Of a DNA stretch of 64,000 nt, positions 18,485 through 27,704 are shown one piece after another. The notes under the pieces are model-generated. The model did no database searches and was not told the DNA's origin. It saw only the letters and a program-made list of their open reading frames with translations. Each line of letters begins with the position of its first letter. Positions within the stretch are counted from its first letter, which is position 1. The translations under genes and the position numbers were made by a program. Source of the DNA: an uncultured Chloroflexia bacterium (GTDB taxonomy: Bacteria; Chloroflexota; Limnocylindria; Limnocylindrales; CSP1-4); NCBI GenBank assembly GCA_963829155.1, contig CAWHIA010000018.1, forward strand, positions 13,804 to 77,803. The letters run 5' to 3'.

Positions 18485-21177
18485 GTGATCGTCTGCGGCA
18501 ATTGCGGGCACAAGAACGACCCGACGGACGCGTTCTGCGGAAACTGCGGCCAGTTCCTGGAGTGGGTCGGCAAGCCCGAGGGCGAAGTGGAGGCGGCGGC
18601 TCCCGCCAGCCCCACCAGCGACCGCGTCCGCGTCATCGAGTCGGAGCCCGAGCCCGAGCCGTCGCGGCCGAGCCCGAGCCCGAGCCCGAGCCCGAGCCCG
18701 AGCCGTCGAGCCGAGCCCGAGCCCGAGCCCGAGCCCGTCGCGGCTGAGCCCGAGCCCGAGCCCGAACCTGAGCCCGTCGTCGCGGCGGAGCCCGAGCCCG
18801 AGCCCGAGCCCGAGCCGGTCGCGGCTGAGCCGAGCCCGAGCCCGAACCTGAGCCGGTCGCGGCTGAGCCCGAGCCCGAGCCCGAACCTGAGCCGGTCGCG
18901 GCTGAGCCCGAGCCCGAGCCCGAGCCTGAGCCGGTCGCGGCTGAGCCCGAGCCCGAGCCCGAACCTGAGCCGGTCGCGGCTGAGCCCGAGCCCGAGCCCG
19001 AACCTGAGCCGGTCGCGGCTGAGCCGGAGCCCGAGCCCGAGCCGAGCCGTCGCGGCTGAGCCGGAGCCCGAGCCCGAGCCAGTCGTCGCGGCTGAGCCGG
19101 AGCCCGAGCCCGAGCCCGTCGTCGCGGCCGAGCCGGAGCCCGAGCCGGTCGCGGCTGAGCCAGAGCCCGAGCCCGAGCCAGTCGTCGCGGCTGAGCCGGA
19201 GCCCGAGCCCGAGCCAGAGCCCGAGCCCGAGCCCGTCGCGCGGCCGAGCCCGAGCCGGAGCCCGTCGTCGCGGCCGAGCCAGAACCCGAGCCGGAGCCCG
19301 AGCCGGTCGCGGCTGAGCCGGAGCCCGAGCCCGAGCCGGAGCCGGAGCCCGTCGTCGCGGCCGAGCCGGAGCCCGAGCCCGAGCCCGAGCCCGTCGTCGC
19401 GGCTGAGCCGGAGCCGGAGCCCGTCCGTCGCAGCCGAGCCCGAGCCGGAGCCCGAGCCCGTCGTCGCGGCCGAGCCGGAGCCGGAGCCCGAGCCCGTCGC
19501 TGCGGCCGAGCCAGAGCCCGAGCCGGAGCCCGAGCCCGTCGTCGCGGCGGAGCCGGAGCCCGAGCCCGAGCCGAGCCCGAGGCCGAGCCCGCGGCCGAGC
19601 CCGAGGCCGAGCCCGAGCCGGAGCCCGTCGTCGCGGCTGAGCCGGAGCCGGAGCGCGAGCCCGAGCCCGTCATCGTCGCCGCGGCTGCCATTGCGTCCGA
19701 GCCCGAGGTCCTCGAAGAGGCCGACACCTCCATCGAGCCCGAGCCCGAGCCGCCCGCGGCACCGATCGCCCGTCGGGGCGGACCATCAAAGGCCCTCTCG
19801 ACCTCCCTCGCCGTCGCGGCTGCGGCCGACGCGGTGCCAGAGCCTGAAGCCGCGGAGGCGGAACCAGAGCCAGAGCCCGAACCCGAACCGGCACCCGCGC
19901 CGACGCCGCCGGCGCCGCCGATGGCGCGACGCGGCGGCCCGTCGAAGTCGAAATCGAGCACCCTGGGCATCGCGGCCGCGGCGGCCGCACCTTCGACGCC
20001 CGCGCCGAGCCCGAGCCTGCCCCAACCCGGTCCCGTCTCTCCGAGCGCCGCATCAACCCCCTCGGCGAGCCCGGTCGGCGCACCTCCCCCACCACCGCCC
20101 CCGGTTCGGCCGGCCGGACCCGGCCCGGTCACCCCGGGCGTCGCCCCGGCCACGCCGGCGCCGGTCGAGCCCGCGGCCCGGCCGCCCGTCGCCGGCACCC
20201 AGCAGCCTCCGGTCAGGCGGCCCGACGCCGTCGGTCCGGCAGCGGCCGCCGCGGCCCGACAGCCCACCGAGGCCCAGCCGGCCGCGCGCCTCCCGACGGA
20301 CCAGGTGGCCGCTCGGCCGAAACCCGTCGCGACCGCGGACCGTCGCGTGGCGCAGCCGGGCGACCGCATCTGCGCCAACTGCGGCGAGGCCAACGACGCC
20401 ACCCGGAAGTTCTGCCGCCGATGCGGCACCAGCCTCGTGACCGCGCAGGTCGTCGCCGCGGCGAAGGTGCCGTGGTACCGGCGGATCTTCCAGCGCCAGC
20501 CCAAGCAGCCGAAGCCGATGGCGGCCGGCGACCGCGTGACCTCGATGCAGGCGGGCGCGAAGTCGGGCTGGCGCTCGTTGATGCAGGTCCGAACGCTGAT
20601 CGTCGGCGCGCTCGCGATCGTCATCGGGCTCGGCGTGATCGGGTACGTCGGCGTGCCCGGGTTCTCGAAGTACGTCAGCGAGTTCACGAGCGGCGGCCTG
20701 CCCGGCATCGCAAACCGGATCGGCAACTTCTTCAACCCGCCACAGGTCCTCGAACGCCCGGTCCTGGCAACGCTCGTGGCAAGCAACGAGGTGGCCGACC
20801 ATCCGATCGGCAACGTCTTCGACAGTCGGTCGAACACCGACTGGCGGGCCGACGGCAAGCAGCCGTCCGCGACGGTGACGTTCCCCGAGAAGGTGGACCT
20901 GCTTTCGACCTACATCTACTCGGGGACGGGCGGCAAGGACTTCGTCGACGTGCGCCGACCTGCGACCCTGCAGTTCACGTTCCCGGACGGCTCGTCGCAG
21001 ACCGTCACCCTCCAGGACATCCACGACAAGCAGTTCTTCGAGCTGAAGGCCTCGGGCGTCGACAAGGTGGTGCTGAAGGTCCTGACGACGAACGGTCCGG
21101 CCGATGCCCCGGTGGCCATCTCCGAGATCGAGTTCTTCAAGAAGGGCGATGGGTCGGCGCCGGCGCCCTCGAACTGA
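18485..21177 (+). CDS. Double zinc-ribbon, Glu-Pro-repeat, single-pass membrane protein with discoidin-like ectodomain (frame broken in the repeat region; could alternatively be two genes)
   Basis: GTG 18485 gives [27 protein letters not shown], the first zinc ribbon. About 1 kb of EP repeats follow. The plausible frame moves from that of ORF 18485..20440 to that of ORF 19834..21177 near 19572. Next come the second ribbon [20 protein letters not shown] (~20368-20430), the TM segment [20 protein letters not shown], and a C-terminal domain ...[15 protein letters not shown]...[10 protein letters not shown]. The paralog at 24544..26007 has the same architecture. Confidence 0.6.
18644..19670 (+). 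repeat. Coding tandem repeat, basic unit ~39 nt ([13 protein letters not shown]; GAGCCC-rich), about 25 units with variants
   Basis: The unit GCTGAGCCCGAGCCCGAGCCCGAACCTGAGCCGGTCGCG and close variants are directly visible. The same DNA reads EPEP, SPSP(NLSRSRL) or ARAR, depending on frame. Confidence 0.85.
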
Positions 21178-21370
21178 GCCTGTCTCCCCGCGCCGCGGAC
21201 CGCTGAGCGGACCACCGGGCGCACGAGGCGACCAACGGGCCGCCGAGCGAACCGGTAGATGCACGGGAGCCCACGTCCTGCGATGGACGGGCCGCTGAGC
21301 GAACGGAACGTGCGGCCGCGCCACCAGTGGGCCGGCCATCGAACCAGCCCATGGACGGCGGCAGCCGGGA

Positions 21371-26007: not shown

Positions 26008-26129
26008 ACCCGCCCTCCCCGTTGTCGACAGGAGGGCCAGTCTAACCGGGACGACGCGCCGGCAGGCGGACGGCCGACCGGCCGGGACGGGAGGTCGCCG
26101 GCCCTGCCCGTCCGCGTAGACTGCCCCGG

Positions 26130-27704
26130 ATGAGCGCAGTCACCTCGCTGTCCCGCAACGATCCGACGGTCGACCCGGGCGGCCAGGCCGCGGTGTCGGT
26201 CAAAGTCCGCAACGCGGGGTCGATCGTCGACCGGTTCGACGTCGACATCGTCGGTCCCTCTGCGGGCTGGGCCCGCGTGGATCCGCCCTCCCTGTCGCTG
26301 TTCCCCGGCGTCGAGGGCACCGTGACGATCACGTGGGCGCCGCCGAAGGCGAGCAGCCCGCGAGCCGGCGTCTACCCGTTCGGGATCCGCGTCCGGCCGG
26401 CGGCAGACCCGAGCGGCTCGACGGTCGAGGAGGGCAAGATCGCGGTCACGCCGTTCACGAGCGTGGCCGCCGATATCGTGCCCGTGACATCGCGCGGCAG
26501 CCGCACCGGCCGGCACCAGGTCGTCGTCGCCAACCGCGGCAACGCCTCGTCCGAGGTGGCCGTCACGGCCGAGGACCCCGACGCGCGACTCAGGCTGATG
26601 GTCCAGCCGCCACGATCGGTGGTCGCGCCCGACGCCAAGGTCGCGTTCGCCATCCGCGTCGACGTCGACGACCCGTTCCCGTTCGGGCCCGAGCGCCAGC
26701 GTCCGTTCCAGGTCAGCGTCACGGCTGGACGACAGGCGCCGATCGCCCTCCGCGGCGTGCTCACGCAACGCCCGGGGCTGCCCGGCTGGATCCCGCCGGT
26801 CGCCGGTGTGATCGGGCTCGTCGCGCTGCTGTCGATCGGCGCCTTCCTCGCCAAGGCCGGGCCGTTCGCGCCCGAGGCCACGCCGGCTCCGTCGATCGCG
26901 CAGGCCTCCGCCCCGCCGTCGGCCGCGGCGCCGTCGCAGGCCGCGCCATCGCAGCCGGCCTCGGCCGAGGCCCCGTCCCAGCCGCCGACCGCCGCGGCCT
27001 CGCCGACGCCGCCGCCCTCCCCCACCGCGCCCCAGAACGAGATTCGCTTCCAGGGCTTCGAGCTCGAGGACCTCGGCCTGCGCGCCGATCCACCCGCCGC
27101 GAAGCGGCAGCCGCTGATCGCCTTCAACACCGACGGCCCGGGCGACGTCGTCCTCACGATGACCCGGAACGACGGCAACAACGGGGTCCCCGTGCGGCTG
27201 TGCCTGGTCCCCGACGGCGGCGACCGTGTCTGCCAGGAGCTCACGGCCCCGGGCGCGGTCACCGCGCCCAACGACCAGGCCGGGACGCGGGCGTGGACCG
27301 CGTTCGCCCGGCCGACCGCCGAGAACAGCGCCCCGTTCGTCGACCTCACGCTGACGTTCTTCGCCAACTCGCGATCGGTCACCTGGACCGACAACGCCGA
27401 GCTCGCGGGCGACGTGACGAGCGCAACGCCCGGCTACTACGGCTTCAACGCGATCATCCGCGCGCCGGCGACGCCGAGCCTGCTGTCCATCACCACGACC
27501 TTCGTCGAGCAGCCCGCGAACTTCGCGTGGGGCCAATGGGTCGTCGGCCAGCCCGAGCCGCCCCTGACCCAGGAGACAGGCCTCGCCAGCAAGACCGTGG
27601 GTCCGATCCCGCTCGCGCCGGGAACGTTCGTCCAGTTCCGGCACGTGGGCCAGTCGACGTTCGACGGCTCGCCGGTCACCTACTCGGTCGCGTTCACCTG
27701 GTAG
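26130..27704 (+). CDS. Membrane protein with two N-terminal Ig-like (CARDB/NEW3-like) domains, a TM helix, a Pro/Ala/Ser linker and a beta-rich C-terminal domain
   Basis: The intact 524 aa ORF is divergent from the TolB-type gene. It reads ...VDPGGQAAVSVKVRNAGSIVDRFDVDIVGP...WARVDPPSLSLFPG.EGTVTITW..., with a second similar module. The TM segment is IPPVAGVIGLVALLSIGAFLA. The domain calls rest on pattern only. Confidence 0.65.
   Translation: MSAVTSLSRNDPTVDPGGQAAVSVKVRNAGSIVDRFDVDIVGPSAGWARVDPPSLSLFPGVEGTVTITWAPPKASSPRAGVYPFGIRVRPAADPSGSTVEEGKIAVTPFTSVAADIVPVTSRGSRTGRHQVVVANRGNASSEVAVTAEDPDARLRLMVQPPRSVVAPDAKVAFAIRVDVDDPFPFGPERQRPFQVSVTAGRQAPIALRGVLTQRPGLPGWIPPVAGVIGLVALLSIGAFLAKAGPFAPEATPAPSIAQASAPPSAAAPSQAAPSQPASAEAPSQPPTAAASPTPPPSPTAPQNEIRFQGFELEDLGLRADPPAAKRQPLIAFNTDGPGDVVLTMTRNDGNNGVPVRLCLVPDGGDRVCQELTAPGAVTAPNDQAGTRAWTAFARPTAENSAPFVDLTLTFFANSRSVTWTDNAELAGDVTSATPGYYGFNAIIRAPATPSLLSITTTFVEQPANFAWGQWVVGQPEPPLTQETGLASKTVGPIPLAPGTFVQFRHVGQSTFDGSPVTYSVAFTW

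Follow-up and report, generated by a model that had tools for sequence, protein, structure and literature searches.

The 64-kb window considered here, that is, the whole stretch of DNA that was analysed, comes from the genome of an uncultured member of the Chloroflexota and carries the gene cluster that encodes a contractile injection system (CIS), followed directly by a block of four genes. The block is probably the accessory set of a fibre-less, cytoplasmic CIS of lineage IId. Gene 1, judged by domain order and profile matching, is a homologue of the Streptomyces membrane adaptor CisA. It is followed by a regulator that joins a STAND NTPase to a SARP output module; by gene 3, a short-linker paralogue of CisA; and by gene 4, a relative of the Streptomyces CIS effectors Sco4256-4258. 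The membrane-adaptor role of proteins of the gene 1 type is known already, having been demonstrated in Streptomyces. New are the Chloroflexota homologues of CisA, the double-ribbon core with very long EP or charged-helix linkers, the pairing of a CisA paralogue with an effector, and the conserved linkage of a STAND/SARP gene.

At ~72% guanine plus cytosine (GC) across the window, raw lists of open reading frames (ORFs) are crowded with spurious frames; real genes were picked by third-position GC together with the translations. An earlier note, made from the sequence of the window, had placed the block directly 3' of the last baseplate gene, and third-position GC, translations and Pfam matches confirm that order: the four real genes follow those for gp25, Baseplate_J and Tail_P2_I. 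The note had also remarked that no characterised system of this composition was known. That caveat is now outdated: descriptions of CisA, of the effectors Sco4256-4258 and of regulators linked to the cluster appeared in 2023-2025.

Gene 1 and the CisA family

Both the contraction of the CIS in situ and the cell death that follows stress require CisA (SCO4242 of Streptomyces coelicolor). This protein is bitopic, with the N-terminus inside and the C-terminus outside (N-in/C-out) by PhoA-LacZ reporter; the portion in the cytoplasm is predicted to bind Cis11, a baseplate protein; and its gene lies just 3' of the baseplate genes (PMC12237407, Casu et al. 2025). A Cys-rich, probably zinc-binding segment before the transmembrane (TM) helix and a carbohydrate-related C-terminal domain of ~150 residues had been described before (PMC10020575, Vladimirov et al. 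2023).

Gene 1 (18485-21177, plus strand, with a GTG start at 18485) likewise lies directly 3' of a cis12/P2_I-like gene. At its extreme N-terminus stands a zinc ribbon (ZnR1, 18494-18565; Pfam Zn_Ribbon_1), whose motif is kept in 42 gene 1 orthologues, in 17 gene 3 orthologues and in CisA. There follow a linker of EP dipeptide repeats in units of 36-42 nucleotides (18637-19669; TRF); two copies of an RRGGPSK motif (19771-19791 and 19927-19947); a second ribbon with a juxtamembrane PWYRRIF motif (ZnR2, 20368-20490, the ribbon itself occupying 20368-20427; invariant columns in alignments A1 and A2); a TM helix (20566-20652, residues 87-115 of the 289-residue query modelled with AlphaFold2, AF2); and an ectodomain of discoidin, F5/8 type C or CBM32-like type (20740-21147; NCBIfam, Foldseek). 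The TM helix is strongly predicted and conserved in all gene 1 homologues; basic residues precede it, which fits an N-in/C-out arrangement only indirectly. The ectodomain scores 53.5 bits against NCBIfam NADase_discoid (cutoff 38), and Foldseek pairs its AF2 model with APC10, CBM32 and the lectin domain of lectinolysin (E 1e-8 to 1e-6).

The same parts can be found in CisA. Residues 1-310 of SCO4242, taken from the AlphaFold3 (AF3) model file in the eLife supplement, begin with a zinc ribbon (NCAECG...FCDACGAVLSW); a disordered linker separates it from a second ribbon (CPWCSTPNRPDRHYCARCA), which precedes PWWRRLF...AGDRP and the TM helix. Both proteins thus run in the order N-terminal ribbon, low-complexity linker, Cys-rich ribbon, PWW/YRR, AG(D/E)R, TM helix and ectodomain, the last being of discoidin type and ~150-170 residues in each. 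Residues 221-281 of SCO4242 match the gene 1 family with an hhalign probability of 98% (E 1.7e-13). A CisA orthologue 77.7% identical to it, encoded on a Streptomyces plasmid directly after baseplate genes and annotated as zinc ribbon domain-containing, aligns with 243 columns of the gene 1 profile, which reach from ZnR2 through the whole ectodomain (hhalign 99.9%, E 1.9e-32), and its best tblastn match in the window is gene 1. Domain order, hhalign matches, position after the baseplate genes and the best match in the window all agree: gene 1 is homologous to CisA and occupies the place of cisA in the cluster; the traits of the family that it displays are this position, homology to SCO4242 and bitopic architecture. 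The papers on CisA call its N-terminus largely unstructured, and the N-terminal ribbon is absent from their text; zinc is never mentioned in the eLife article (PMC12237407). A literature search found no link between contractile injection systems and the term zinc ribbon.

The linkers of the two proteins differ in length and make-up. The one in gene 1 measures 685 residues in the intact closest orthologue, against ~195 in SCO4242, and consists of EP repeats (AEAERQ in relatives) with the extra RRGGPSK motif, unlike that of CisA; [RK][RK]GG[PA]S is conserved among the closer Chloroflexota orthologues. Across 41 intact gene 1 orthologues the ribbons are 49-693 residues apart (median 424), the interval being filled by EP repeats, by charged repeats of the AEAERQ type or by sequence rich in Pro and Ala. 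What the homologues conserve is a core of two ribbons, juxtamembrane motif, TM helix and discoidin domain, around a variable linker.

The tie between block and CIS, which the earlier note had proposed from gene neighbourhood, holds when genomes are compared. Alignment A1, covering the ZnR2-TM-discoidin part, was used to scan species-representative genomes for relatives of gene 1; of the 219 relatives confirmed, the best 80 loci were fetched and searched with the window proteins. Almost all are labelled uncultured Chloroflexia, Chloroflexota or Candidatus Limnocylindrales, and an actinomycete origin of the window, which its GC content might suggest, is set aside for this reason; the Actinomycetota in the set include Streptacidiphilus, Humibacillus, Actinophytocola, Microthrixaceae, Acidimicrobiales and Thermoleophilia. 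Where a locus offers 6 kb or more of upstream sequence, as 69 distinct loci do, two or more of gp25, J and P2_I invariably lie immediately 5' of the gene 1 homologue. In the window all three are present on the plus strand (Pfam): a gp25-like gene (15226-15624), a Baseplate_J or Cis11-like gene (15627-17573) and a Tail_P2_I or Cis12-like gene (17570-18124), respectively 61%, 54% and 46% identical to their counterparts in L086, a Streptomyces cluster of S. coelicolor type. Of the 72 loci that have 3.5 kb or more of downstream sequence, 67 show a convergent STAND/SARP match beside the gene 1 homologue. The unit of baseplate genes, gene 1 and SARP gene recurs in four distant homologues, hand-chosen from protein matches: Cellulomonas cellasea, an Actinomycetota metagenome-assembled genome (MAG), Longispora and Streptomyces sp. 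NPDC048340. Longispora has a minimal SARP of 248 residues without the NTPase; Streptomyces sp. NPDC048340 has an AAA+SARP protein of 509 residues.

Some variation in these loci may be recorded separately. In one Actinomycetota MAG (L079, ~9176-11400) a P2_I-like match lies 3' of the gene 1 homologue, in a rearranged order. Two short contigs with the same locus, L039 and L064, are labelled Verrucomicrobiia and Steroidobacteraceae; these are probably mis-binned contigs of Chloroflexota or Actinomycetota. The closest relative, L003, has two insertions of ~1.3 kb absent from the window (6428-7750 and 15874-17137): that between P2_I and gene 1 carries an IS3-like OrfB, that between genes 3 and 4 an IS110-like transposase. 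In the window a non-coding gap of 360 bp (18125-18484) separates P2_I from gene 1, and a consensus scan found no promoter-like site there; in the Streptomyces reference cluster, by contrast, cisA overlaps cis12.

Gene 3, gene 4 and the effector connection

In S. coelicolor, Sco4256-4258 are effectors with a common N-terminus, one TM helix and a variable C-terminus, in two cases a RICIN domain. Escherichia coli is poisoned by them; in the triple mutant the lumen of the tube is empty; and the effector mutant phenocopies CIS loss, the effectors being required for CIS-mediated death (PMC10066040, Casu et al. 2023). Gene 4 (26130-27704, plus strand, divergent from gene 3; BLASTP, AF2, Foldseek) has a comparable build. 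Its AF2 model (pLDDT 87) comprises tandem PapD/ASH-like Ig domains (26130-26768; also Foldseek), a TM helix (26790-26849, residues 221-240), a disordered linker and a C-terminal beta-sandwich (27027-27701). In L086 the effector position is held by a RICIN-domain protein whose first 236 residues are 34% identical to gene 4 (BLASTP, E 5e-37) and whose sole match in the window is gene 4. The N-terminal module, with 4426 representatives at E up to 1e-3, nearly always occupies residues 1-240 ahead of diverse C-termini, as is characteristic of polymorphic effector families. A tblastn search within the window found no second gene 4 paralogue.

Gene 4 shares with Sco4256-4258 the N-terminal domain, the single TM helix and the variable C-terminal domain, and the PapD-like N-terminal fold reported for Sco4256 (PMC10020575) is recovered in it by Foldseek. 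On this homology it belongs to the Sco4256-4258 effector family; the earlier note had seen its Ig-like domains and TM helix correctly and had left the protein uninterpreted. Two differences should be kept in view. The Sco4257/58 type ends in a RICIN lectin (the comparison being with the L086 protein), whereas gene 4 ends in a beta-sandwich; and genes of the Sco4256-4258 type lie between the AAA ATPase and DUF4157/eCIS_core genes, whereas gene 4 stands apart from the core cluster and diverges from gene 3.

Gene 3 (24544-26007, minus strand, TTG start at 26007; Pfam, NCBIfam) encodes two zinc ribbons (ZnR1, 25942-26001; ZnR2, 25693-25752; Pfam), then a TM helix (25555-25626) and last a PD40 propeller of TolB-like type (24544-25380; Pfam, NCBIfam). 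The paralogy of genes 1 and 3, recognised in the earlier note, is borne out by both ribbons: 46% identity over 39 residues for ZnR1 (E 5e-8) and 55% over 44 residues for ZnR2 (E 3e-9). These four are the only genuine zinc-ribbon pattern matches in the 64 kb; a fifth (62691-62738) was rejected, as it crosses stop codons in a non-coding frame. The propeller matches the TolB propeller model (E 1.4e-33, model positions 239-403 of 418) with a score of 116, below the equivalog cutoff of 343, and there is no TolB N-terminal domain. TolB itself is a soluble periplasmic protein with a TolA-binding domain, whereas the gene 3 product is TM-tethered, with two ribbons predicted to be cytoplasmic.

With gene 1, the cytoplasmic part of gene 3 aligns only in the separate ribbons. 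With a ZnR-ZnR-TM-discoidin protein from L084 it is colinear (40% identity, E 1e-17); this locus and L085 were reached through gene 4 homologues in genomes without gene 3. On the other flank of the CIS, L084 (10001-14506) has a gene-4-like gene, a secreted TolB-like propeller protein and the ribbon protein; the same triad of effector, propeller and ribbon protein occurs in L085 (10001-15371), ~10 kb from the CIS cluster. Since gene 3 is colinear with the L084 protein and gene 1 is matched only piecemeal, the alignments divide the ribbon proteins into two lineages: a long-linker PWYRR type, that of CisA, which follows the baseplate genes, and a short-linker type, which travels with effector genes. 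The proposal that such proteins anchor or trigger the CIS agrees, for gene 1, with the role shown for its homologue CisA; gene 3, of the separate, effector-linked lineage, is only a putative anchor. A simple gene-fusion origin of gene 3 is unsupported: by BLASTP its propeller is unlike the separate propellers of the L084 and L085 triads (710-762 residues).

It might be supposed instead that genes 3 and 4 form a separate envelope module unrelated to the CIS, serving cell-wall maintenance or co-regulated with ppdK (27744-30533, minus strand, with an FAD/NAD oxidoreductase gene beyond it; Pfam). The two genes occur in just 17 distinct loci, always as a pair and always adjoining ppdK; other relatives have a PAS/GGDEF/EAL gene, or nothing, in their place; and TolB-like propellers are common among envelope proteins. 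Set against this, gene 4 shares homology in its N-terminal half with CIS effectors that have experimental support, the N-terminal ribbon of gene 3 is the same as that of CisA, and the related triads of L084 and L085 flank a CIS cluster or lie near one. We consider a separate module unlikely. The variant in which the block is co-regulated with ppdK, which the earlier note had raised, falls away because ppdK adjacency is confined to the closer relatives, whereas CIS adjacency spans two phyla.

Frame breaks, the fibre position and the regulator

The domains that the earlier note assigned are upheld by Pfam, NCBIfam and AF2; gene 1 as one open frame is not. The frame that begins at 18485 stops at 20440, and the ZnR2-TM-discoidin part lies in an ORF at 19834-21177, so that the gene is read in two frames (18485 and 18487/19834) by way of single-base indels. 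Listed unit by unit, the EP repeat swaps between the two frames at least six times, each switch being a single-base indel in the GAGCC(C) unit; the units at the switches have one or two bases too few or too many, as with GAGCCGAGCCC in place of GAGCCCGAGCCC. The regulator gene has one surplus base at 23480, between FTVP and VEDAEDAF, where an orthologue reads FTVPVED. The VgrG-like spike gene (Phage_GPD/Phage_base_V type; 13144-14814, plus strand) is in three frame segments with two switches, and its orthologue in the relative L001 is intact, at 562 residues. The breaks in gene 1 and the regulator were examined base by base, those of VgrG as frame switches in translation.

With three genes of the cluster broken (gene 1 at least six times, the STAND gene once, VgrG twice), one could conclude that the breaks are real, that the locus is decaying and that the module no longer functions in this organism. 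The details speak otherwise. In gene 1 and the regulator every break is a single-base indel in a short C/G run, typical of long-read error; third-position GC stays at or above 0.9 across the breaks; frame-shifted copies turn up in a homologue search on the related contigs P0003 and P0010 as well; and in relatives with k141 or NODE contig names, that is, short-read assemblies (L020, L022, L033 and L041), gene 1 is a single ORF with both ribbons. In L003, the closest relative (92-98% protein identity), gene 1 (981 residues) and the regulator (1013 residues) are intact, and the breaks therefore look like assembly errors. Decay is accordingly improbable; the error pattern and the contig naming make long-read consensus errors the most likely source of the breaks in gene 1, the regulator and VgrG. 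The reading of gene 1 as two genes, or as a gene with a programmed frameshift, was also rejected: the frame change varies between relatives, many orthologues are single ORFs, and single-base indels in repeat units do not fit it.

Gene 1 occupies the position in which phages and extracellular CIS carry a fibre gene; domain annotation of the gene order in the window's CIS cluster finds no fibre gene after Tail_P2_I. Gene 1 could then itself encode a tail-fibre-like receptor-binding protein of an extracellular CIS, a part of the particle whose discoidin domain binds glycans of the target cell. Sco4242 has indeed been termed a 'putative fiber', its peptides having been detected in purified particles (PMC10020575), and Foldseek assigns the gene 1 ectodomain a carbohydrate-binding fold. 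Yet the particle's cryo-EM structure shows no CisA (PMC12237407), all gene 1 homologues have the predicted TM helix, and CIS of this lineage have been seen free in the cytoplasm in Streptomyces and also in Chloroflexota, where they have been imaged (PMC12998442). A fibre is thus very improbable, and gene 1 is better taken as a membrane adaptor of the CisA type. The same 2026 study of Chloroflexota CIS describes Roseiflexus as without close cisA homologues (PMC12998442).

The regulator (21371-24431, minus strand; translations, Pfam, NCBIfam) is ~1020 residues long, with its P-loop at 24237-24263 and its SARP region at 21371-22111; intact orthologues in L001, L002 and L003 have 1000-1021 residues. 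In the N-terminal half, residues 23-391 resemble MalT (NCBIfam MalT, E 5.8e-51, with a score far short of the equivalog cutoff), and WHD_MalT is found in orthologues. The C-terminus, residues 800-1008, matches Trans_reg_C (26.8 bits, cutoff 26.2) and BTAD (37.1 bits, cutoff 22.1). With MalT and the LAL regulators it shares the P-loop NTPase, the MalT-type winged helix and helical repeats; those proteins have a C-terminal helix-turn-helix of LuxR type, and this one ends in a SARP module instead. With AfsR and the SARPs it shares the DNA-binding module of OmpR-type Trans_reg_C plus BTAD. The typical SARP/AfsR layout puts this module at the N-terminus; here it is at the C-terminus.

The literature yielded no paper that ties SARP regulators to CIS; a functional tie is suggested by the convergent position beside the cisA homologue, which is kept in two phyla. 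That the STAND NTPase is an anti-phage protein or stand-alone sensor, near the CIS by chance, is scarcely credible: STAND NTPases are frequent in defence islands and PADLOC returns P-loop matches at E ~1e-3 (none for genes 1, 3 and 4), but none is a significant defence-family match, the protein has a MalT-like half and a SARP DNA-binding output, and its place is kept in those 67 of 72 loci and, as the minimal SARP of Longispora, even where the NTPase is missing.

A proposed role for the block and its setting

Published work on the homologues, carried over to this locus, suggests the following scheme. Gene 1 would be a bitopic N-in/C-out adaptor: the N-terminal ribbon, on its long stiff EP spacer, would extend into the cytoplasm; the second ribbon and the basic PWYRRIF would lie at the membrane; a glycan-binding discoidin domain would touch the envelope outside. 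Through its ribbons or linker it may recruit the free-floating CIS, by way of the baseplate (a Cis11/J-like protein), to the cytoplasmic membrane; sensing the envelope through the discoidin domain, it would license firing under envelope stress; firing would release effectors and lead to cell death. Gene 4 would supply a loaded, membrane-active effector of the Sco4256-4258 family. Gene 3, we infer, would be an adaptor or sensor linked to the effector, perhaps an anchor, with the same ribbon on a short linker and its TolB-like propeller outside the membrane. The MalT-like STAND/SARP protein would be a signal-sensing, ligand-responsive transcription activator of the cluster. Other systems likewise fix the baseplate to a host membrane before firing, as do the thylakoid-anchored CIS of Anabaena and the membrane complex of the type VI secretion system (PMC12237407); there, however, the anchors are baseplate extensions or trans-envelope complexes and are parts of the particle, whereas proteins of the CisA type are separate membrane proteins.

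A more general idea is possible, if rather doubtful. The extreme N-terminal ribbon (M-I-V-C-x-x-C-G...F-C-G-x-C-G-x-F-L-E-W) might be a universal docking handle for the CIS, borne by two classes of membrane protein. In the first, the CisA type, it would sit on a stiff spacer of EP repeats or charged helix up to ~100 nm long, like the end of a fishing line. The second would comprise short-linker paralogues such as gene 3, inherited with membrane effectors of the Sco4256 type; the ectodomains of these paralogues (TolB-like propeller or discoidin) would link distinct envelope signals to effector loading or firing. The MalT-like STAND/SARP sensor would set the expression of the whole system.

Several points tell against reading the block as the accessory set of this CIS. 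For the present lineage the evidence is of sequence alone, the experiments coming from Streptomyces homologues. Between those hosts and the Chloroflexota, gene 1 and CisA are only ~28% identical in the conserved part, with a pairwise BLAST E of just 5e-10. As gene 1, the regulator and VgrG are broken in the assembly, function in this organism hinges on sequencing error. Relatives weaker than the best 80 of the 219 could lie outside CIS loci. The STAND/SARP gene is not universal, because L086 carries a LuxR-type regulator in its stead. A consensus scan of 17900-27900 found no promoter, terminator or repeat motif that would mark the block as one regulon, a scan that did not extend to repeat sites of the SARP type. 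Finally, BLASTP finds no similarity between the gene 3 propeller and the separate propellers of L084 and L085.

The cluster upstream of the block is complete, with genes for eCIS_core, an AAA+ ATPase, Pvc16_N, sheath, tube proteins, and CIS_tube plus LysM, then a VgrG-like spike, PAAR, gp25, Baseplate_J and Tail_P2_I. Two further frames inside it may be recorded. An ORF of ~700 codons (1429-3531, plus strand) encodes annexin repeats (Pfam Annexin, E 5e-27); it overlaps the divergent eCIS_core gene (1035-2204, minus strand), and its start codon is ambiguous. Annexins are uncommon in bacteria. A membrane-binding protein of this kind at a CIS cluster could be a candidate effector or targeting factor. 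A second ORF (9993-11891, plus strand; 632 residues), rich in Pro, Ala and Arg and lying in a stretch of 80% GC, has no Pfam match; it has tube-associated genes on both sides, a place in which one would look for a tape-measure-like gene, and its counterpart in L001 (590 residues) likewise has no domain match.

How a free-floating cytoplasmic CIS reaches the membrane and decides to fire is the key question for this lineage, and these two steps underlie regulated cell death in multicellular bacteria. CisA has so far been reported only from Streptomyces and other actinomycetes. A recognisable homologue follows the baseplate genes in dozens of Chloroflexota genomes and in diverse Actinomycetota, and in the window it is accompanied by two partners without earlier description: an effector-linked paralogue of CisA, and a conserved STAND/SARP regulator that may govern the system.

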